Source of the DNA: an uncultured Gammaproteobacteria bacterium
GTDB taxonomy: Bacteria > Patescibacteriota > Patescibacteriia > Magasanikbacterales > UBA922
Assembly: GCA_964522435.1 (NCBI GenBank)
Contig: CAZFUL010000001.1
Location: forward strand, 117,075 to 181,074
Length of the DNA stretch: 64,000 nucleotides
Direction: 5' to 3'
The notes under the pieces are model-generated. The model searched no databases. It saw only the letters and a program-made list of their open reading frames with translations, and was not told the origin of the DNA. The position numbers and the translations under genes are program-made. Shown here one piece after another: positions 2,240-49,564 of this stretch (its first letter is position 1; the number at the start of each line of letters is the position of its first letter).

Positions 2240-3610
2240 ATGCAAATTGGTCCGGTGTTTATTGATATGTCCTATCTGCAAGGTCTTTTGGATCGTGGCT
2301 TGTTTGGTATATTAGGCGAATTATTTATTCTTGGAGGATTTTTACTCTTTGTTTGGGTGTGTTTCTTTTTTGCTTTATCCTATTATCAAGAATATCGAGA
2401 AAATAAATTTACTGCAGATTGGCGATGGGTGGTATTAGCCGTAGACATTCCTCCGTTAAATGTACAAACACCCAAAGCCATTGAACAAATGTTTGCGCAC
2501 TTGGCGGGGGCATTTGATAAACCTGGAATAAAAGATAAGTTTCGTGGGGGCTATAAACAGCGCTGGTTTAGTTTTGAAATTATTAGTATCGAAGGCTATA
2601 TTCAATTTGTGATTCGCACAGAGGCTGCGTTTCAAAAATTGGTAGAAGCGGCATTATATGCCCAGTATCCTGATGCCGAAATTACAGAAGTAGAAGATTA
2701 TGTACAAGGATTACCAGATACCTTTCCAGATAAAACCTATGACATGTGGGCAGCTGACTTTGGTTTAGCCGAAAACGATGCCTTTCCTATCCGCAGTTAT
2801 CATGATTTTGAACATAGTATTTCTAAAGATACGGTGTTAAAAGACCCCATGGGAGCATTTTTAGAAAGTTTTAGCCATATTGGTCCAGGAGAACAAATGT
2901 GGTTTCAGATTATGATTGAGCCAATTGATAATGGCTGGAAAGATAAAGCAATTAAAAAAATTAAAGAACTTATTGGAGAAAAAGAAAAAGCAAAAACCAG
3001 TCCGCTTCAAAAATTATTAGATGTGCCTATTCAGACCGTTGGCTTATTAAGTGATCAGATTTACGGCGCTGTGGAGCGTGGTGGGGCAAAAGAAGAAAAA
3101 GGAGATAAAAATGAATTGCGCTATCTTACCCCAGGACAAAGTAAATTAGTAGAAGCCATGGAACAAAAAATTTCCATGATCGGGTTTAAAACAAAAATTC
3201 GCGGCGTGTATATTGCGCGTAAAGAAGTCTTTAAGCCAGAACGTGGCGTGCCTGCCCTTATTGGGGCAATGAATCAGTTTAATATTCCTACCTCCAATTC
3301 AATTGTGCCAAAATCAGGTGCGTCAAGTAATGAAAAAAAGACCCTGTTTATGATGGCCTATAAAAAGCGAAAATTAAAAATTGGTGCAAATCCATTTGTC
3401 TTGAATGTGGAAGAATTAGCAACCATTTGGCATTTCCCCATGTCTCATGTAAAAACGCCTATGGTGCAAAAAGTGGAAACCAAACAATCAGAGCCTCCTA
3501 TTGGTTTACCTATTGAGCGTGTTGATGCCCCAATTATTGCGGAAAAAAAGAAAAAAACAGAAAGTAGCACCGATGCCTTTGGCTACTCAAGTGATATGCA
3601 TTTTGGATAG
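2240..3610 (+). CDS. Hypothetical membrane-anchored protein (N-terminal TM helices, large soluble domain)
   Basis: 456-aa ORF with host-like AT-rich codon usage. No family recognised from sequence alone. Confidence 0.6.
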   Translation: MQIGPVFIDMSYLQGLLDRGLFGILGELFILGGFLLFVWVCFFFALSYYQEYRENKFTADWRWVVLAVDIPPLNVQTPKAIEQMFAHLAGAFDKPGIKDKFRGGYKQRWFSFEIISIEGYIQFVIRTEAAFQKLVEAALYAQYPDAEITEVEDYVQGLPDTFPDKTYDMWAADFGLAENDAFPIRSYHDFEHSISKDTVLKDPMGAFLESFSHIGPGEQMWFQIMIEPIDNGWKDKAIKKIKELIGEKEKAKTSPLQKLLDVPIQTVGLLSDQIYGAVERGGAKEEKGDKNELRYLTPGQSKLVEAMEQKISMIGFKTKIRGVYIARKEVFKPERGVPALIGAMNQFNIPTSNSIVPKSGASSNEKKTLFMMAYKKRKLKIGANPFVLNVEELATIWHFPMSHVKTPMVQKVETKQSEPPIGLPIERVDAPIIAEKKKKTESSTDAFGYSSDMHFG

Positions 3611-3616
3611 TCAATA

Positions 3617-3695
3617 AAAAAAACCGTTCCACTCTCCCTCGAAAATACTCGTATAGATAAAGTACTTTCGGTGGCGTTGGAACGGTTTTTTTGTT
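3617..3695 (+). terminator. Composite hairpin terminator (long stem aaccgttcca...ggaacggtt followed by T-run)
   Basis: Inverted repeat enclosing an inner hairpin, followed by tttttttg. Confidence 0.45.
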
Positions 3696-3722
3696 CACTG
3701 CCCCCGTTGTTTTTGTCGTCGG

Positions 3723-3908
3723 TCACTTGCGGCGTTTGGGCATCGTGTTTAAGGCAAATGCGCCAGAAATCACGAATAACGTGAGAGAAATATAGGCAAT
3801 CCACTCGGCCAGCCGAGGGAAGCCCAGGCCTTTGGTCGGCAGTGACAGCCAGACCGTAGCGAAGGAAAGCGCAAATGCTTTTGCGCTGATTCTGTTGATA
3901 GTTTCCAT
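3723..3908 (-). CDS. Small 2-TM membrane protein (61 aa) encoded in a G+C-rich islet
   Basis: Strong SD ggagga 6 nt upstream of the ATG on the minus strand. Local GC is about 50% against about 35% in the flanks. Hydrophobic profile with a basic C-terminus (MPKRRK). Confidence 0.45.
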   Translation of the reverse strand: METINRISAKAFALSFATVWLSLPTKGLGFPRLAEWIAYISLTLFVISGAFALNTMPKRRK

Positions 3909-4013
3909 CGATATCCTCCATCCTGTTGGGGGTGTAGGGCTATGCTAATAGCTCTTTTGCTTCTTGTCAACTGCTTGATTTTTTCCTCATGTTTCGCTAG
4001 TATCAATGCTATT

Positions 4014-4988
4014 ATGTGGGTAAACAATATTTTAAAACAAAAAAAACATATTCTTGCCTTGTCACCTATGGCAGACATGACGGATTCTTCGTTTTGCCAA
4101 ATGGTACGCCAAATTGGGGGAGCGGATGTCGTATTTAGAGAAATGGTAAGTAGCGAAGCCATTGTCCGAGAAAATGCCAAAACAATTGGCATGACTGATT
4201 TTGTGGAAGCGGAGCGTCCTATTGTGCAGCAAATTTTTGGCTCTGATCCACTCATTATGGCAAAAGCCGCTGAGATTGTGATGCAGCATGCCGCGCCAGA
4301 GGGGATTGATTTAAACATGGGTTGTCCGGTATATAAAATTACGAGCAATTTTAATGGTTGTGCTTTGATGAAAGATCCAGAACGGGCTGCCGCAATTATT
4401 AAAGAAATTAAACAAGCCATTGGTGATACGCCAGTTTCGGTAAAAATTCGTTTAGGGTGGAGCGATCCAGATGATTTTAAAAAATTTATCCCGGTTATAG
4501 AACAAGCGGGTGCAAGCTTAATTACCGTGCATGGCCGCACCAAAGCGCAAGGCTATAGTGGTAAAAGTGATTGGCAACGGATTGCACAAGCAAAAAAAAT
4601 TGCCACTGTGCCGTTATTAGCGAATGGCGATATTCATGAATGGCATCAGGTTACTGAGGCGCTTGATATTACGGGAGCTGATGGGGTACTCATTGCACGA
4701 GGTGCCTTGGGGAATCCTTGGTTTTTTCAACAATATCTCAAACAAGAGGGGAGTATTTCATTAGAAGAAAGAAAACGAGTGGTACTTGCCCATGCGCAGT
4801 TGCATGTACAACAATATGGAGAGCGAGGCATGGTAACCTTTCGTAAACATTTGGCCTGGTATTTTAAAACAAGTAAAATCGGATTTGAAATTCCAGGTAT
4901 TAAAGAATGGCGGATGAGAGCGATGCAGGTGGAGACCTTGGTAGAATTGCAAGGCTTGTTGCAAGAGCTCGTAGGCGAATCACTATAG
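4014..4988 (+). CDS. dus: tRNA-dihydrouridine synthase (Dus family)
   Basis: LSPMADMTD motif (LAPMAGxTD), FMN-binding TIM-barrel motifs and NMGCP. The real start is probably ATG 4014 or 4068 rather than 3942. Confidence 0.85.
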   Translation: MWVNNILKQKKHILALSPMADMTDSSFCQMVRQIGGADVVFREMVSSEAIVRENAKTIGMTDFVEAERPIVQQIFGSDPLIMAKAAEIVMQHAAPEGIDLNMGCPVYKITSNFNGCALMKDPERAAAIIKEIKQAIGDTPVSVKIRLGWSDPDDFKKFIPVIEQAGASLITVHGRTKAQGYSGKSDWQRIAQAKKIATVPLLANGDIHEWHQVTEALDITGADGVLIARGALGNPWFFQQYLKQEGSISLEERKRVVLAHAQLHVQQYGERGMVTFRKHLAWYFKTSKIGFEIPGIKEWRMRAMQVETLVELQGLLQELVGESL

Positions 4989-5051
4989 GGGGTTCTCTAC
5001 TTTATTAGTCTTTTTTTACTTATTTTAGCAAAATTTAATAATATATATCCC

Positions 5052-5079
5052 AAAAGCCTCTTGACAAAAGGCTTTTTTT
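5052..5079 (+). terminator. Hairpin aaaagcc(11 nt)ggctttt plus T-run after dus
   Basis: Seen in sequence. It overlaps the promoter below. Confidence 0.5.
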
Positions 5080-5089
5080 GTGCTATTAT
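5061..5089 (+). promoter_or_regulatory. Sigma70-like promoter TTGACA-17-TATTAT
   Basis: Perfect -35 TTGACA (5061-5066), 17-nt spacer and -10 TATTAT (5084-5089). It reads into GC-rich islet B and the ORF at 5790. Confidence 0.55.
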
Positions 5090-5255
5090 GTTTCGTTATC
5101 GTCGTATTTCATAACAGCAGCTATTGCCTGTTATTATGAAAACCGACGAGTCGTGTGTTACGACTTACGGTCCAGCGGCATTCCTGCCGCGAGCTGCTAT
5201 AACTGACCCAAGCAGTGTAAATAAATGGGTCCCCGTGGCATGAAGGAGAATACCC

Positions 5256-5516
5256 ATGCCCAATCCCGGTGAAACCCCCAGCACCCCTGCCACCACCTCC
5301 ATGGTGGCGCCCGTCCAGCCGGCCGCCGAGGTGCAGCCGGATCTGGCGTCTGTCGCCCCGGCCGAAGAGCCCCCCACCGTCACGGCGGTGGCCTCTGATA
5401 CCGACGGTAACGGGCTCACCGACCGCGTCGTCATGACCGGGGGGGGGATCATCCCCCTGGGAATCGCGGGAGGGGGGTCCCGTCCCGATCGTCCCCGGAT
5501 GCGCGGTAGCAACTAG
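5256..5516 (+). CDS. Possible small Pro/Ala/Gly-rich protein in a very GC-rich islet (uncertain coding)
   Basis: AAGGAG lies 8 nt upstream of the ATG. The region is over 70% GC and has long ORFs in several frames, so the coding call is weak. Confidence 0.2.
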   Translation: MPNPGETPSTPATTSMVAPVQPAAEVQPDLASVAPAEEPPTVTAVASDTDGNGLTDRVVMTGGGIIPLGIAGGGSRPDRPRMRGSN

Positions 5517-5789
5517 CCCCTCGGCGGGACCTCTTTATATGTACGCGTTCTGCGTATAAAGAGTTCATCTTCTGAACGCAGCACCTGGCCGGTCGCGCTT
5601 TTATAAGCGACCCTGCACAAGCGCTTGACTGTCATCCTCTGACATTCGCGCGACCGGCCCCACAAAAAAGTACATCAATAGTGGTGTGCTTTTTTGTTTT
5701 TATGAGGAATACACTGATATGTAACCAAATTGAATTAAAGGAAAAATAATGATAGTCTAACAAATGAAATTGTATTTAATCGTATTATT

Positions 5790-7181
5790 ATGTTTGCAGA
5801 GTTTAGACCAGAATATTTTTCTATTACAGATATTCATCAATTACCTGCTCAGGAACAGCAACGTCATATTGAATATTATTTAGAAACGAATATACGAGAA
5901 CTTATTCAATCTCGAGGAATACTTTCTGATGAAAGTTATGTGTTTTTAATGGATAGCTTAATGGAAAGGGGGGTATTGGATGCGGTTTTCCGTGATGGAG
6001 AAGATGCTCTGAATCCTCGAGATATACAATATTTAAGTCGATCTGAAAAAGGAAAAGAACTGCTCTTACATTTTTTTTCTAAGATTATGGTGTTGTTTAC
6101 TCCTGAACAATTAATTGATCTGTTAAAACAACAACAAGCCGATGAACAACTTATAGGAACTATTATTGAAAAAGTTCGTTCTCTTGAAAAGAGAAATGAG
6201 TTGGTTCAAGAAGTCTATACAGAATTTTCTAGGGAACCACAGACAGATATATTGGGAATAATAGTCAGCCTATACGAAAAAGGGATATTAACGGCTCGTC
6301 CTATATTTTGGGAAGAACATTCAGAAGATTTATTGCGGTTTAGTGTTCGTACGGGGAAGTCTTTTTCATTAACCTCTTTAGGTTATGTGTATGATACAAG
6401 CCAAAATCGTGAAAGACTTATTGCGGAAATACAAACAGAAAAGACCATTGCTAAAATTGTTATTAATAATGAAGCCGTTTCTGTATTGGAAGTTCTATTT
6501 ATTGCTCCTATAGATCAACAAGATGTCCCTCTTTCGACGGGGAATAATTTTGAAAATCCTAAGGCAGAGTTATATACAAAAGATAGCCCGGAACCAGGAT
6601 CTTCTTTTTGTGTTGGAGGAGCAAATACGTCAGAAGACATAAACAGTTTAGAGAAAATTAACAGTATTGCTATTGATGAAATCGAACGAGTAATGAAATC
6701 ACGAGGTGATCTTGATATCCAAGCGGGAGATTTAAAATTTGCTATTGCTGATAGTGGGTATCTTGGTGCTGAAGATAGCCTTAGGGAAACATTATTAGCT
6801 GATAATGAAACAGTTCAAACATTAGGGACAAATCATCAAACATTAGCTGTAGATTTATTTATTTTTCAGCGCTTAGCATATTTACTTCCTTCTGGTGAAT
6901 CAAAATCTCATATTGATTGTGTGTATGCTGGTGTTCCACTTCGTATTGATTGTAAACTAAGAACGCCAAGTCCTATTGATTCCCCTTTTGGAGATGAGAC
7001 TAGAGGACGTCAAGATATTATTGTAACAAACAAGAAAACAGGAAAATCAATATTTTTTTCTGAGCTACATCCATATATGATGTATCGATATGGGTTTTAT
7101 GAAGGAAAAGGTTGTTCCTATCGTTTAAATCCTAAAGATGTATTCGAGTTATTAAAAACCGATTTAGAAGAAAAAAAATAG
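5790..7181 (+). CDS. Hypothetical protein (463 aa), no recognisable domain
   Basis: Long ATG ORF with host-like composition. No family motifs recognised. Confidence 0.6.
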   Translation: MFAEFRPEYFSITDIHQLPAQEQQRHIEYYLETNIRELIQSRGILSDESYVFLMDSLMERGVLDAVFRDGEDALNPRDIQYLSRSEKGKELLLHFFSKIMVLFTPEQLIDLLKQQQADEQLIGTIIEKVRSLEKRNELVQEVYTEFSREPQTDILGIIVSLYEKGILTARPIFWEEHSEDLLRFSVRTGKSFSLTSLGYVYDTSQNRERLIAEIQTEKTIAKIVINNEAVSVLEVLFIAPIDQQDVPLSTGNNFENPKAELYTKDSPEPGSSFCVGGANTSEDINSLEKINSIAIDEIERVMKSRGDLDIQAGDLKFAIADSGYLGAEDSLRETLLADNETVQTLGTNHQTLAVDLFIFQRLAYLLPSGESKSHIDCVYAGVPLRIDCKLRTPSPIDSPFGDETRGRQDIIVTNKKTGKSIFFSELHPYMMYRYGFYEGKGCSYRLNPKDVFELLKTDLEEKK

Positions 7182-27383: not shown

Positions 27384-28127
27384 ATGACCATGCAACTGTT
27401 GGGTGTCTTTTTTGTTGGCCTCGCCGCGAGTTTTTTAAGCGGTATTGCGGGAGGTGGCGCTGGGCTTATTACCATTCCCTTATTAATATTTTTAGGAATT
27501 GATCCAAAAATTACCGCAGCAACAACTACCTTTGGGGGATTAGGATTGGGGATAGGCGCGTTGTTTCGCTTTCGTAAGGAAAAAAATTTACGAAAACAAT
27601 ATAGTAAACCTTTCACTCTTATTTCTATATTTGCCGGATTGTGTGGACCCTTTATATTATTTTTCTTAGAGAGTAGTTGGGTAAAAATCGTTGTGGGTTC
27701 TATTATATTACTTATTGTTCCTTTGTTTTTGTTAAAGAAAAAGATTGGAACAGAACAAAAAGAAACAAGTCAAAGAAAAAAAATTATTGGCTATCTCTTG
27801 TATGCGTTGCTGTTAACCTTGCAAGTGGCCTTTGGCTCTGGGATTGGCATTGCTATCATTTTTGTCTTGGTGGCATTTTTTGGGCTTACCTTAATAGAAA
27901 CAAGTGCAACATTACGGTTACCACAACTGGTTTCTTCTTTTATCTCTCTGTTTTTATATGGCTATCAAGGATTATTAGATTATCGTTATGGAATAGTGCT
28001 TATGCTTGCGATGATTTTGGGAGGGTATCTGGGTTCTCATGTGGCAATAAAAGCGGGTAATGCGGTTATTCGCTGGGTTTTTGCTGCTATGGCAGCGATC
28101 CTCGCGGTAATCTTGTTGATTCAATAA
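27384..28127 (+). CDS. TauE/SafE (TSUP) family membrane transporter
   Basis: GIAGGGAGLITIPLLIFLG repeat motif. Polytopic. Confidence 0.75.
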   Translation: MTMQLLGVFFVGLAASFLSGIAGGGAGLITIPLLIFLGIDPKITAATTTFGGLGLGIGALFRFRKEKNLRKQYSKPFTLISIFAGLCGPFILFFLESSWVKIVVGSIILLIVPLFLLKKKIGTEQKETSQRKKIIGYLLYALLLTLQVAFGSGIGIAIIFVLVAFFGLTLIETSATLRLPQLVSSFISLFLYGYQGLLDYRYGIVLMLAMILGGYLGSHVAIKAGNAVIRWVFAAMAAILAVILLIQ

Positions 28128-28131
28128 AACA

Positions 28132-28164
28132 AAAACCCTATACCGTTCTGGTACAGGGTTTTTG
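28132..28164 (+). terminator. Rho-independent terminator (ccctgtacc.../ggtacaggg + T-run)
   Basis: aaaaaccctataccgttctggtacagggttttt. Confidence 0.55.
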
Positions 28165-28238
28165 AATTGCTCCGACGGGGGTGGGGAACTGCCGAAGCAA
28201 TTCATCCGCGTCGTCGGGGCGGAACTCCTTGTTTGTCG

Positions 28239-28760
28239 TCAGGGGGTCCCTGTATTGTACGGGTCAAGGAAGATGAACCGTTCTTCTTTGGGATAGTACC
28301 CTGGGTATACCGTCCAGACCGTGAAGTGCCATTGCTGGTTGCGCTCTTTGCGCATCCGAACTTTCATGGTGAGTTGGGTAGTTTTTGGAGCCAGGATGAG
28401 CTCCTTGGGGAGGACGGGAATCCCGGATGACGGCCTTCTCAGCTGCTGTTGCAAGTATGGCTGGGTGGGGACACGGGTCACCCAGCCAATATGGCGGGGA
28501 AGACTCAGGGTGATCGAATGATCTTCTTTACCCCGTTCAATTGCGCTGCGCAGGGCCGCGCCCAAGTGTGCAGCAACCTCTTGGTCATCGACGCAGGCTT
28601 GCAGGTTTGGCCAGGCAGAAATATTTCCGGCCAGTGGAGCGCCTGCCAGACGGAAATGGTCAGTTTGTACCTGGACTATGGTCTCGTGGGGAAAGATGAC
28701 CTTGACCACCGGTGCGCCGTCCGGTCCCATAGGAAGGATCAGATATTTGGCGAAAAGCAT
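28239..28760 (-). CDS. Hypothetical protein (173 aa) in GC-rich islet C
   Basis: RBS aaggaa upstream of the ATG on the minus strand. GC about 55%. The + strand ORFs here are shadow ORFs. Confidence 0.45.
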   Translation of the reverse strand: MLFAKYLILPMGPDGAPVVKVIFPHETIVQVQTDHFRLAGAPLAGNISAWPNLQACVDDQEVAAHLGAALRSAIERGKEDHSITLSLPRHIGWVTRVPTQPYLQQQLRRPSSGIPVLPKELILAPKTTQLTMKVRMRKERNQQWHFTVWTVYPGYYPKEERFIFLDPYNTGTP

Positions 28761-28772
28761 GAACGTTTCCTT

Positions 28773-29375
28773 TCAGTTGTTGTGTTTTTTGTTCATGTGG
28801 CGAATTGCGATTGCCACACTGCCGTTGCCCATCACCCCGATGAGGATGGGGTGTACGAGGGATACCAGTTGTTGCTCTGGCTGCCAGTGGATGACCAGGT
28901 TCGTAGTCATGATCATATACGACACCACCGCAATGTACCAGGGCAAGATGTTTTCTTTGTTGCCTTTGAGTACACCGAGGACGGTGGGAATGAACGATAG
29001 CACATATACTGCTTGAAGCAGCAAGTTGGCCATTACATCATCACCGCTGGTACGCCAGTAGTAGACAATGACGCCGGCGATTGCCAGAATCATCCATTCT
29101 GTTGGCCCGATTTTGCTAAAGCGCTTGTTGAACGCTGCGTAGCCAAGGATCAAAAGCGATCCGAGGCATGCTGCGCCAGTTGCTGCCCAGCGGCTCAGGT
29201 CACCATCTACCACTTTGAAATAGGTGACTGAGTTGACCACATTGACGCTGCCCCAAATTGCCCAGGTTGCGGCGTTTGGGGTGATATTGCCCTTGATCAC
29301 GTAGTACAGGTACATGCTGAGCAAGAGTAGCACACCCGACATTGAAATGAGTGAAAGAATATCAATGAGCGCCAT
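28773..29375 (-). CDS. Hypothetical polytopic membrane protein (about 200 aa) in GC-rich islet C
   Basis: RBS aaggag 6 nt upstream of the internal ATG (MALIDIL...). The longer ORF to 29429 was rejected as an upstream extension. Confidence 0.45.
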   Translation of the reverse strand: MALIDILSLISMSGVLLLLSMYLYYVIKGNITPNAATWAIWGSVNVVNSVTYFKVVDGDLSRWAATGAACLGSLLILGYAAFNKRFSKIGPTEWMILAIAGVIVYYWRTSGDDVMANLLLQAVYVLSFIPTVLGVLKGNKENILPWYIAVVSYMIMTTNLVIHWQPEQQLVSLVHPILIGVMGNGSVAIAIRHMNKKHNN

Positions 29376-29427
29376 TGCAGGCTCCTTTGTCTGACGTTTT
29401 TCTTGGCAGAGACTAGAATAGAACATC

Positions 29428-30288
29428 ATGATTTTAATCAGTTGTCAATATAGCGTATGTATGGGAAAATATTCGTATATGCGTGATACCACACACAACA
29501 GAGCATGGGTACGAAACATCGGTATTGTCTGTTTTATTTTTATCCAATTCTTGGGAATTGCCATTAATCTTATAAAGCAGCAAGATTGTTATAAACAAGA
29601 GCAGTCCATAGAGCAACAGTTTTCCAGCAGGCAAGAAGGAGATGTTCGTGTATTAAAAGAAGATATGCTCAATCATTTTGATTGTGGCATGTCGTTTGGC
29701 GTGCCTGCGCCTATTGTCTATGTCAAAGATGATACAGGCAGTGTTGGGGTATTGCCTCAAAGTATTGTGTTTAATATTGTGCTCTATGCTGCCGTTTTTT
29801 TTGCGGTTATGCGTGGGTATGCCTTGTTCAAACAACAGCGCTATACGCGTGTAGGTGTGGAAAGCATATTGTGTATTGTGGGATTGTTTATTGCTGCTAT
29901 ATTATTGCAATTATCGTTTCGGTATAGTGGGCTTATGTATACCGGAGGGCCTGTAATACGATTTCCTTCGTTGATACCATCAACACAGTCGTTTGTGGAT
30001 ATAGGGGCTGAGTATGTGTTTTATGTTCTTACTATGCTTGCCGCAGGATTTTTTTCTGTATATACCTGGTATGGTTATGCGGCAATTATTTTTTTATATC
30101 TTGTATTATTTGGAATCGTTGTATACCGGATACAAAAAATATATATACCACTCTCATATAAAAAATTGTTGACCTGGGGAATTGTTGGATTTATTTTTTT
30201 CTATCTTTTTATGTCGTATAGTGCGTTTATTACGCAAGGGGTGGTTGATCTGAATTGTTTACATAACAATAGTGGTTGTGACGGCTAG
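29428..30288 (+). CDS. Hypothetical polytopic membrane protein
   Basis: ATG ORF with multiple hydrophobic segments. Start uncertain. Confidence 0.5.
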   Translation: MILISCQYSVCMGKYSYMRDTTHNRAWVRNIGIVCFIFIQFLGIAINLIKQQDCYKQEQSIEQQFSSRQEGDVRVLKEDMLNHFDCGMSFGVPAPIVYVKDDTGSVGVLPQSIVFNIVLYAAVFFAVMRGYALFKQQRYTRVGVESILCIVGLFIAAILLQLSFRYSGLMYTGGPVIRFPSLIPSTQSFVDIGAEYVFYVLTMLAAGFFSVYTWYGYAAIIFLYLVLFGIVVYRIQKIYIPLSYKKLLTWGIVGFIFFYLFMSYSAFITQGVVDLNCLHNNSGCDG

Positions 30289-32010: not shown

Positions 32011-32134
32011 CGTACATTATGGGAAGAGAAGGACAGACGATAGCAATATCTGATAGTAGCCTCTTCTCATAATCAGTAGCAATGCTGTTGCTGAACGTGG
32101 GAAGAGTAACGCTGTTGTATAGGAGGACGTTGTC

Positions 32135-32950
32135 ATGGCACCATACTTTTCTTGGCTGGTAGCGTCTGGAGTTATTGAACGAACAATGCCCGATGGAGGG
32201 GTGGTTCATGTTTCCACCTTGCCTGACGCAGCGGTGGCAGCTGCGGGCTGGTGGGGGACGGAAAATCTGCGTCCCGAGTATTGCTTGAGCGGCGGCTGCT
32301 TGTTTGATGCGCGTTGGCAGCTGCAGTTTCCTGCACAAAACAAAGGACACCAAGGCGCTGTTCGTACCTTGTCCTTGCCGCGTGAGCGCGATGATGCGTA
32401 TGCGCGTTTGAAGAAAGGACAAACGCCACTTGCCCTGCACCTGCCGAAAGGGCCTGGCGTGTATCAGCAGACGCTCATTCGCTGGCAAGCAGCGGTGTTT
32501 CGTCGCTTGCAGCCCACACAGATTCTGTACCATCTTCCGACCGATGAATATCGTGTCTACATTCAAGAGATGGAACAACATCTGGGCTATGCCGTTCCTG
32601 CTGCCTACACACAGCTTGACCAGCTCGCTGTCTCTATTCGTGCGCTTATGGTGCGGGAGTTTGGGGCTGCTCTCATGGCACGTGTTCGCTTCGTGCGTCC
32701 TATGCACACGCATGGAGTGAAAGATACGACACAGTCCTACCTGCATCCCTACTTGTTTCCGGAGTTGTATGGGATCACTCCTGCCAATACCGTTGGTGTG
32801 GAAGATCTTGTTGAACTCCGTCTTGCCTACGAAGCATGGCGCATGCGCGGACACCAGATTTCGGTGTACGCAGCTGCCCTTGCCCTGCCTCCTCCCTACG
32901 CAGATAAAACGCTGCGGCCTGGGGAATTCACGACCGTTGAGCTGATGTGA
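32135..32950 (+). CDS. Hypothetical protein (271 aa) in GC-rich islet D, strong SD
   Basis: taggagga lies 8 nt upstream of the ATG. GC is well above the flanks. The antisense ORF 31979-32854 is judged a shadow. Confidence 0.5.
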   Translation: MAPYFSWLVASGVIERTMPDGGVVHVSTLPDAAVAAAGWWGTENLRPEYCLSGGCLFDARWQLQFPAQNKGHQGAVRTLSLPRERDDAYARLKKGQTPLALHLPKGPGVYQQTLIRWQAAVFRRLQPTQILYHLPTDEYRVYIQEMEQHLGYAVPAAYTQLDQLAVSIRALMVREFGAALMARVRFVRPMHTHGVKDTTQSYLHPYLFPELYGITPANTVGVEDLVELRLAYEAWRMRGHQISVYAAALALPPPYADKTLRPGEFTTVELM

Positions 32951-33011
32951 TATACACCTCAGCTCCGGTCACCATCCCATAAATAGTTATTTTTTATTAT
33001 ACTATATCCAT

Positions 33012-34004
33012 ATGTTCTATCTCTCAAAAAAAAATCTTAATGCATTACGCATCGGGAGTTTATGTTGTGCGACGGGTGGTGGTTTATCGTATCGTGATCA
33101 TGGAAAAGCCTTTGATGCTGCGTTATCAAAAAAATCAAAGATTCTCTGTAAAGAAATAGCCGAATTTCACGCAACTGACTATCTTGCGTCTATCTATGGT
33201 GTTGGAGATCCATCACAAGTAAAAGGAGATTTTGTTTCTGTGATTAAGACAGGAGTAAAAAAGTATACACAACTCACTGGGATTACACCGAAAGGAATTA
33301 TTCCTGGAGAAATTGGTGCGGAAGGCTTAGCATTTCAGGCTGCTAGCTATCTTAATTTGCCAGTCGTTGATTCTGATTTAGTTGGTGGAAGGGCTGCTCC
33401 AGAAATTCAAATGGATGTATTTTCTGTGTACGATCTTCCACTTACTCCATTATTAGCGGTGAGTATGAATGGAAAAGAGTTATTTCTCAACGGTGCATTT
33501 GGCGCAAAAGAAATTGAAGGATTGATTCGTTTATTTTTTAAAAATAATGGCAGTAATGGATTACTTATTGGTTATCCTATACAAGCCAAACAGTATCAAC
33601 AATATGGAATGAGTGGAACGATTTCTCGGGCAATTGCTATTGGCGACTGTTTGTTAAAAAAGGATTTGCCGGGAGTATTAGAACATACTCAAGGAAAGAT
33701 TCTTGGTGAAGAAACAATAGACGCCGTCTCGCTCTCTAGTCAGGACGGATTTTTGCAAGGATGGCTTTCTCTTGGTGATATGAGTGTCTTGGTAAAAAAT
33801 GAATATATTCTGGTAAAGAAAAAAAATAAGATGCTTTGCCAGGCACCAGAGAATATTATGCTACTTGATAAAGACTTGTTTCCGATTCACAGCACACAGG
33901 TACAACAATATGCAGGAAAAAAAGTATCTGTGTTCGTTATTCCTGGACAAGGATATTGGAAAGTACAACGAGCAAAAAAATTATGGGATTCAGCAAAAAA
34001 ATAA
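33012..34004 (+). CDS. DUF917-family protein (hydantoinase-like fold)
   Basis: Glycine-rich ATGGGLSY plus overall family resemblance. Moderate confidence. Confidence 0.55.
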   Translation: MFYLSKKNLNALRIGSLCCATGGGLSYRDHGKAFDAALSKKSKILCKEIAEFHATDYLASIYGVGDPSQVKGDFVSVIKTGVKKYTQLTGITPKGIIPGEIGAEGLAFQAASYLNLPVVDSDLVGGRAAPEIQMDVFSVYDLPLTPLLAVSMNGKELFLNGAFGAKEIEGLIRLFFKNNGSNGLLIGYPIQAKQYQQYGMSGTISRAIAIGDCLLKKDLPGVLEHTQGKILGEETIDAVSLSSQDGFLQGWLSLGDMSVLVKNEYILVKKKNKMLCQAPENIMLLDKDLFPIHSTQVQQYAGKKVSVFVIPGQGYWKVQRAKKLWDSAKK

Positions 34005-48925: not shown

Positions 48926-49070
48926 TTGTGAACCTAAGAATAATTGATTGGAATTATAGTCTATGAAGAATTGAAGCAATGGAAAAAACTAAGAGAATCT
49001 TATTGACATAATTATCATTTTATGATATTGATCTCTGATCAATCAAATTTCTACCAGAGGAGGTACTCCT

Positions 49071-49463
49071 GTGCTGAATAAAATCCTGCTCATTGAAGAC
49101 GACATCGAGACAGGGATCTTGATCCGGGGGGGGCTGCAGGGCGTAGAGGATGAAAACTGGGAACCCCTGTATGACGTGTTCTACGCAACCAACCTGAACG
49201 ATGCACGGTTGCGGCTCGACAAAGGGGACATCGACCTCTTGATATCCGACACCTGCGTCGATAGCAAGAACCGGCCTGATGCCCACGTGCTGATCGAGGA
49301 GGTACGGCAACGCTACCCCAATATGCCGATTCTCGGAATGTCTAGTTCTGACTTCTACCGAGATATCATGTTGGAGGCGGGATGCAACCGCTTCTACACC
49401 AAATCACCCCGTGACCTGCAGTTCGCAGGGCTGCTGGAATTAGTGCAGGAGCTTCTGCCTTGA
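49071..49463 (+). CDS. Stand-alone CheY-like receiver domain protein, GTG start, in GC-rich islet F
   Basis: gaggagg lies 7 nt before the GTG. ILLIEDD, phospho-acceptor D in DLLISD, and T/K positions are conserved. GC is about 55% against AT-rich flanks. Confidence 0.6.
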   Translation: MLNKILLIEDDIETGILIRGGLQGVEDENWEPLYDVFYATNLNDARLRLDKGDIDLLISDTCVDSKNRPDAHVLIEEVRQRYPNMPILGMSSSDFYRDIMLEAGCNRFYTKSPRDLQFAGLLELVQELLP

Positions 49464-49564
49464 CGTAGCGACCCTCCATTTGTGAAGACTCAAAGGCAAG
49501 CGCGAGTATAAACGCTTCCAATCCCCATCCTAAAATTATTTTGAAAAAAAGTAGTTTGAGGATA

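Follow-up and report, generated by a model that had tools for sequence, protein, structure and literature searches.

A GC-rich islet with a candidate small membrane-protein gene upstream of dus in a CPR bacterium

Small membrane proteins and comparable genomic islets

Type I toxins such as Hok/Gef, Ldr/Fst, TisB, Ibs, ShoB, ZorO and TxpA are small hydrophobic proteins. The generic description used by Fozo et al. (2010, PMC2887945) comprises a length below 70 amino acids, a predicted transmembrane or hydrophobic helix and a C-terminus that is polar or charged. The gene considered here is located on a GC-rich islet (islet A) within a 64-kb stretch of DNA that was analysed as a whole and is called the window below. 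It encodes a putative 61 amino acid protein, which resembles the type I toxins in being a short hydrophobic peptide with a polar and basic C-terminus and in being encoded alone in an intergenic region, with its own predicted promoter and Shine-Dalgarno (SD) sequence. In contrast to these toxins, the small gene shows no sequence relation to them, no detectable antisense RNA gene and no tandem copies, its leader is short, and two helices are predicted for its product, whereas the toxins usually have one.

Small regulatory membrane proteins, such as AcrZ, MgtS, KdpF and CydX, are encoded beside their partner complexes or co-regulated with them and are conserved within their clades. The 61 amino acid protein falls into the same size range, has one or more predicted membrane helices, and is encoded by a stand-alone short gene of the kind that is often missed by annotation; unlike these proteins, it is an ORFan without a functional neighbour. 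Class II holins and pinholins, exemplified by S68 of phage 21, likewise combine small size, two helices and a basic C-terminal tail, but islet A is devoid of a lysis-cassette context and of phage homology, and its first helix is marginal. Horizontally acquired ORFan islets share with islet A an atypical GC content, GC3 and translation signals, the absence from relatives and the location in a variable intergenic spacer. Islet A differs from them in its tiny size (one gene, ~280 bp) and in lacking a mobility gene, flanking repeats and an identifiable donor. Judged by these features, islet A is a lineage-specific ORFan small membrane-protein gene on a tiny compositional islet, and as such of a familiar kind. 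Alone it matters little: the genome of an uncultured CPR bacterium gains one further small membrane protein, an ORFan that had escaped annotation.

The insertion in the spacer upstream of dus

The genes surrounding islet A are, in this order, secD and secF (178-1923), a gene for a 456 amino acid protein (2240-3610), dus (PF01207), a gene for a 463 amino acid protein, and dnaG. The relatives of Dus in GTDB species representatives and JGI metagenomes belong to Candidatus Magasanikbacteria and other Patescibacteria; the nearest relative is 88% identical, and none above 77% was detected in the metagenome scan. We assign the host of islet A to Candidatus Magasanikbacteria (Patescibacteria, CPR). 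The gene order secF, 456 amino acid gene and dus is conserved among the relatives, and the spacer between the latter two genes has a median length of 94 bp in 30 syntenic loci versus 403 bp here. Searching with the 61 amino acid protein by tblastn revealed no match in these 30 loci or in any of 104 related loci. The initial annotation of this DNA had considered that the same islet in related genomes would argue for a native origin; the islet is absent from all 30 syntenic relatives. The gene for the 456 amino acid protein keeps its position across Magasanikbacteria at 50-65% identity; it belongs to no Pfam or NCBIfam family and matches only PHROG 5156 (function unknown, E = 1e-17).

In the relatives, the spacer consists of a terminator hairpin, followed by a promoter of the pattern CTTGATTTTTT...TAnnAT and by ATGTGG, the start of Dus. 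Because a terminator hairpin is present at the same place in the relatives, the terminator next to islet A (Table 1) is considered native and not part of the insertion. The inserted segment would extend from this terminator on one side to the -35 box of the dus promoter on the other and includes the GC-rich core. A repeat search found neither direct nor inverted repeats flanking it, and its boundaries are therefore only approximate; as for mobility hallmarks, terminal repeats, an integrase and a target duplication were all lacking at islet A. Islet A is real DNA and, on the comparison of spacers, a lineage-specific insertion of ~280 bp in a short conserved spacer.

The promoter and ATGTGG pattern of the relatives, together with Dus alignments that start at residue 25 of the ORF opening at 3942, places the true start of dus at the ATG at 4014 (MWVNN), with a predicted leader of near zero length. 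A start at 3942, which would give the longest ORF with 24 additional hydrophobic residues, was rejected as an ORF-calling artefact; this extension overlaps the promoter of the small gene. The -35 boxes of the small gene and of dus are arranged back-to-back on opposite strands, 4 bp apart.

Table 1. Features of islet A and its borders, and other GC-rich islets of the window (positions refer to the window)
Feature	Positions	Strand	Details and basis
Lineage-specific insertion, ~280 bp	3693..3972		Spacer compared with 30 syntenic relatives; 40-bp GC steps
Bidirectional intrinsic terminator	3617..3692		Inverted repeat I1 and folds; 15-bp perfect outer arms AAAAAAACCGTTCCA / TGGAACGGTTTTTTT
CDS of the 61 amino acid ORFan protein METINRISAKAFALSFATVWLSLPTKGLGFPRLAEWIAYISLTLFVISGAFALNTMPKRRK	3723..3908	-	ORF and codon scores; stop codon included
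Shine-Dalgarno sequence GGAGGA	3914..3919	-	5 nt upstream of the ATG; read directly
Sigma-70-like promoter of the small gene	3942..3970	-	TTGACA (3970..3965), 17-nt spacer, TAGCAT (3947..3942); 10/12 matches
Native dus promoter	3975..4003	+	TTGATT (3975-3980), 17 nt, TAGTAT (3998-4003); pattern conserved in relatives
Islet A	3696-3940	-	Gene 3908..3723
Islet B	5087-5709	+	Just downstream of dus; GC up to 0.745 in 200-bp windows
Islet C	28111-29387	-	Genes 28239-28760 (weak AGGA only) and 28773-29429 (no SD at that start)
Islet D	32046-33019	+	Gene 32135-32950; AGGAGGA
Islet E	49021-49541	+	Gene 49071-49463; GAGGAGG, GTG start, weak response-regulator receiver match

The GC content of islet A is 53.5% (0.535) and that of its ORF 0.516, versus a mean of 40.5% (0.405) for the whole window, 0.38 for the upstream 456 amino acid gene and 0.42 for dus. 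Compared with all 245-bp windows, islet A has a z-score of 2.36 (~2.4), and 2.9% of these windows equal or exceed its GC content. The contrast with the surroundings is moderate, not extreme. The initial annotation had described about 240 bp of roughly 50% GC amid surroundings of about 35% GC; the islet is real, but the background was set too low.

A local GC jump and the presence of the islet in no relative would also be expected from an assembly chimera or a contaminant spliced into the contig, which had been an early concern. However, the Logan contig L001 (SRR12762285, 1,102 bp) is identical to window positions 2912-4013 and reproduces both junctions at 100% identity; it comes from a separate assembler, possibly working on the same library as the MAG. 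A chimera would furthermore require two exact false joins, both flanks being in conserved synteny. Nothing similar to the segment was found in plasmids, phages or the DNA of E. coli, and the small gene appears to use the native terminator and adjoins the native dus promoter. These results argue strongly against contig chimerism at this point, and we regard a splicing artefact at islet A as very unlikely indeed.

In other lineages, the same spacer carries unrelated insertions of 864 bp (L011), 766 bp (L020), 559 bp (L091) and 302 bp (L022), and is thus a recurrently variable spot. The insert of L011 (~4990-5990) has a GC content of 0.547 versus 0.472 and includes a plus-strand ORF for a hydrophobic protein of 67 amino acids. 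The insert of L020 (~5230-6000; GC 0.573 versus 0.48) contains a minus-strand ORF of 173 amino acids with CAE and PCGVC motifs, read directly, which are typical of cytidine deaminases. In the two closest relatives, L002 (~4700-4790) and L005 (~5890-5930), the spacer contains short GC-rich palindromes, for example CCTGCCTACCGGCAGGCAGG followed by GATAAT, and these units look like REP-type intergenic repeats.

Coding signals, SD usage and origin of the small gene

The minus-strand ORF of 61 amino acids with a canonical GGAGGA, on which the initial annotation was based, is found as described, and gene starts led by GGAGG are rare within the window. Transcription of the small gene is predicted to start at ~3935, which would give a 5' UTR of ~27 nt. 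The inner part of the terminator is a 46-nt hairpin, flanked by an A-run and a T-run, and the terminator starts ~30 nt beyond the stop codon of the small gene. These flanks would provide a U-tract after the hairpin on both strands, and thus the element can probably end both the plus-strand gene at 2240-3610 and the minus-strand small gene. The window is part of an NCBI contig of 257,606 bp, of which other genes are recorded but not the small ORF; gene calling apparently missed it there. An overlapping ORF of 112 amino acids (3921..3583) was rejected, as it has no SD, reads across the terminator and into the adjacent gene, and obtains a worse codon score.

When the 280-bp insert was shuffled 5,000 times with its dinucleotides preserved, a closed, SD-led ATG ORF of at least 61 codons occurred in 0.14% of the shuffles. 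For a promoter match of at least 10/12 within the 70 nt preceding any one start, the density of such sites in the window predicts a chance of ~1.8%. The product of the two values, with independence assumed, gives a joint chance of the order of 1e-5 for promoter and SD/ORF. Frame 0 of the small ORF also scores highest of the six frames under both codon models used here, one for backbone genes and one for GC-rich genes.

In AT-rich genomes, a GC-rich patch is often an RNA, and islet A could accordingly represent a structured non-coding RNA or a cis-regulatory element rather than a protein gene. The GC enrichment is in line with this possibility, as are a perfect 8-bp hairpin at 3868-3887 and a folding z-score of -5.6 for the minus strand of 3610-3945. 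However, this z-score is mostly due to the terminator hairpin, and within the small ORF the GC content peaks at the third codon position (0.44, 0.50 and 0.61 for positions 1, 2 and 3), which is a coding signature and not a signature of RNA structure. Rfam yielded no match for the islet, whether at the gathering threshold or with E values up to 10; in the window, only three tRNAs reach the gathering score, and nothing meaningful was found at E up to 10 in 3500-6000. The islet is also not a dus leader, because the dus promoter sits downstream of it. An RNA element in place of a protein gene is thus highly improbable.

An SD motif of at least four nucleotides precedes 5 of the 53 long ORFs of the window, and the sole 5-mer is that of a different GC-rich gene. 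In all related Magasanikbacteria loci, too, SD motifs are scarce, whatever the GC content. The view that most backbone genes lack an SD therefore holds for this window, where 48/53 long ORFs are without even a 4-mer. A TAnnnT hexamer, often TATACT, is found 9-16 nt before the ATG at 25 of 49 backbone starts, a count made without a chance baseline. This suggests that the backbone mRNAs are widely leaderless or carry very short leaders. The window provides a clean example of SD-led genes within an SD-poor, apparently leaderless background, and it raises the question of whether the ribosome of an SD-poor genome can still use a canonical SD.

The GC3 of the small ORF is 0.61, compared to 0.19-0.43 for the backbone genes. 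With a codon model derived from the remaining GC-rich genes of the window, the small ORF gains 9.4 bits (0.154 per codon), which matches the leave-one-out values of 0.11-0.17 bit per codon obtained for those genes themselves, while it scores -8.2 bits under the backbone model. The sliding-window GC and codon-usage analyses that had been proposed initially are thus both in agreement with an atypical segment. Composition, SD usage and orientation, which had been taken as signs of foreign DNA, all differ from the backbone, as does GC3, and the islet is missing from relatives. The codon scores and the absence from relatives point to horizontal acquisition from a higher-GC, SD-using source as the most likely origin of islet A. 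No donor was found among protein representatives or in plasmid, phage and E. coli DNA, and searches with the proteins of the other GC-rich genes returned distant relatives only, without a donor. One of these genes (32135-32950) has homologues with 34-41% identity, one of which is syntenic, being located upstream of the same S-Me-THD gene in L104, a CPR-like contig. High GC and an SD alone therefore do not prove an outside origin.

On balance, we favour the explanation that the gene on islet A was imported, stands alone and is expressed, and that it encodes a small protein of the cytoplasmic membrane with an accessory function. A segment of ~280 bp would have entered the spacer between the CPR-specific 456 amino acid gene and dus on a Magasanikbacteria chromosome, coming from a higher-GC, SD-using donor, as may also hold for several other GC-rich SD-led genes of the window. 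The insert would constitute a self-contained one-gene unit on the minus strand, with its own sigma-70-like promoter, a 27-nt leader containing the SD and an ORF of 61 codons, and it would borrow termination from the bidirectional hairpin of its neighbour. The product would most likely form a helical hairpin in the cytoplasmic membrane, its KRRK tail and probably also its N-terminus facing the cytoplasm, and its most likely role would be that of an accessory small membrane protein that binds or perturbs a membrane component.

Alternatively, islet A could be non-functional cargo, i.e. a recent foreign scrap that is useless to the organism and in which the ORF and its signals were left over from the donor or are partly fortuitous. 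This is consistent with an ORFan of which one copy is known, with an unameliorated GC3 that suggests recent arrival, and with the rare use of SD sequences in the host clade; the unrelated insertions that the same spacer bears elsewhere (L011, L020, L091 and L022) suggest that it tolerates junk. Against it stand the frame-specific codon bias and the completeness of the unit, in which promoter, SD, ATG, intact ORF and terminator follow each other in the right order, with the low joint chance given above. We therefore consider useless cargo unlikely, though a serious competitor of the expressed accessory gene.

Four further GC-rich islets are present in the window (Table 1). Islets C, D and E have a GC content of 0.51-0.54, the GC3 of their genes is 0.54-0.64, and their leaders are mostly SD-like; none of their genes obtained a confident family assignment. 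Islet B, a much stronger GC islet than A, contains a plus-strand ORF (5256-5516) for a protein of 86 amino acids rich in Pro, Ala, Thr and Gly, with a GAAGGAG motif in its leader. It is preceded by a near-consensus promoter, TTGACA-17-TATTAT with a TG extension (5061-5089), which would give a leader of ~165 nt, and is followed by several hairpins. The 86 amino acid protein is a singleton without a family match, and neither the backbone model nor the GC-islet model accounts for the codon usage of its gene. In L006, L036 and L037, dnaG directly follows dus, which suggests that islet B and the 463 amino acid gene are lineage-specific as well.

A more far-reaching proposal would be that islets A to E represent at least five orphan or near-orphan SD-led cassettes from a single outside pool, such as the host of an episymbiont or its mobile elements, and that the 61 amino acid peptide acts on membranes as an effector or as a toxin, in the latter case perhaps the first of a type I-like kind in the CPR. 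Codon usage is common to islets A, C, D and E, but B does not fit, and we regard the combined proposal as a long shot. If it were true, the islets would be a molecular trace of the presumed episymbiont's host. The genomes of CPR bacteria are tiny and their hosts unknown, and freshly imported genes with foreign translation signals could reveal what they take up and from whom. The set of cassettes with high GC and SD sequences, in a CPR genome otherwise poor in SDs, is a more interesting thread than islet A alone.

The predicted protein and its possible role

The maxima of Kyte-Doolittle hydropathy over 19 residues are 1.68 for residues 33-55, which passes the threshold, and 1.19 for residues 7-25. 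Two 15-residue windows of the protein contain at least 10 of the residues IVLFCMA, and the first helix passes the looser rule of Fozo et al. AlphaFold2, run with no alignment, predicts helices at residues 2-21 and 31-55 that are connected by the linker PTKGLGFPR (mean pLDDT 72.7). The 61 amino acid protein is thus predicted to adopt a helix-loop-helix structure that ends in a KRRK tail, one of its helices being clearly and the other marginally hydrophobic. The initial description as a protein with two transmembrane segments agrees with the two predicted helices and with the hydropathy of residues 33-55, but is less certain for residues 7-25. The protein ends with NTMPKRRK, and by the positive-inside rule the KRRK sequence at the C-terminus would put this end on the cytoplasmic side. 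The simplest topology would be a hairpin whose two ends are both inside.

In a word-indexed search of 5.8 billion proteins, the 61 amino acid protein matched only itself, and phmmer against 1.84 billion cluster representatives retrieved only the protein itself and P0002. The latter was rejected as a spurious homologue: it is a translated tandem repeat that has KGLGFP in common with the query. The sole other record of the exact protein (Logan, SRR12762285) is identical. No match was found in Pfam (E up to 10), NCBIfam, PHROGs, PADLOC or PDB sequences, no relative was present in IMG/VR contigs, and Foldseek against the PDB returned generic helical hairpins only, which were not significant (E >= 3). 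Comparing the islet by tblastn and blastn with plasmids, phages and E. coli DNA, as the initial annotation had advised, likewise yielded no match and hence neither a homologue nor a donor in these sequences. The protein is accordingly classified as an ORFan, which has no homologue in any search made.

Class II holins are typically small and have two helices and a C-terminal tail that is highly basic, and since all three features are predicted for the 61 amino acid protein, its gene could be what is left of a phage lysis cassette with a holin- or pinholin-like product. However, no endolysin or other phage gene is adjacent, the neighbours being a conserved CPR gene and dus, and PHROGs, IMG/VR contigs and phage genomes contain no match. 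The first helix is furthermore only weakly hydrophobic. A phage lysis remnant is therefore hardly probable.

The initial annotation had also proposed a type I toxin-like peptide. In such a module, a membrane-damaging toxin of 61 amino acids would be encoded by an mRNA that is silenced by its own structure and by an antisense RNA. The length of 61 amino acids, the hydrophobic stretch, the polar and basic C-terminus and the intergenic location agree with the generic descriptors of type I toxins (PMC2887945), which, however, also apply to numerous small membrane proteins that are not toxic. When the predicted mRNA is folded, UCCUUC of codons 15-16 pairs with the SD in both the MFE structure and the ensemble (mean P(unpaired) ~0.07), and a 5' CCCCC pairs with GGGGG just beyond the stop codon. 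Sequestration of the SD is equalled in 17% of codon-order shuffles; it is thus not significant and was not taken as evidence for a toxin. No plus-strand promoter-like site for an antisense RNA, with at least 9/12 matches, is present in 3300-3960, and the plus-strand TAnnnT sites, inspected by eye, lack a usable -35 box; an RNA encoded in trans could still lie elsewhere in the genome, outside the 64-kb window. The 5' UTR of ~27 nt is short, no tandem duplicate or paralogue was found in the window or in the 104 related loci, and there is no match in Pfam at E = 10 or in NCBIfam and PADLOC. We know of no described type I system in this phylum, and a literature search retrieved none for the CPR. 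The proposed likeness thus stands at the generic level of the protein, but not for an antisense promoter, tandem copies or family membership. The toxin reading is unproven, and we consider a complete type I module improbable.

Two minor features of the small ORF concern its internal sequence. The perfect 8-bp hairpin is formed by AGCGCAAA and TTTGCGCT and lies within codons 8-14. The octamer GCAAATGC occurs a second time at a distance of 117 nt (3754-3761), so that the peptide AFAL is found in both predicted helices (residues 11-14 and 50-53); this repeat could be due to an internal duplication or to chance.
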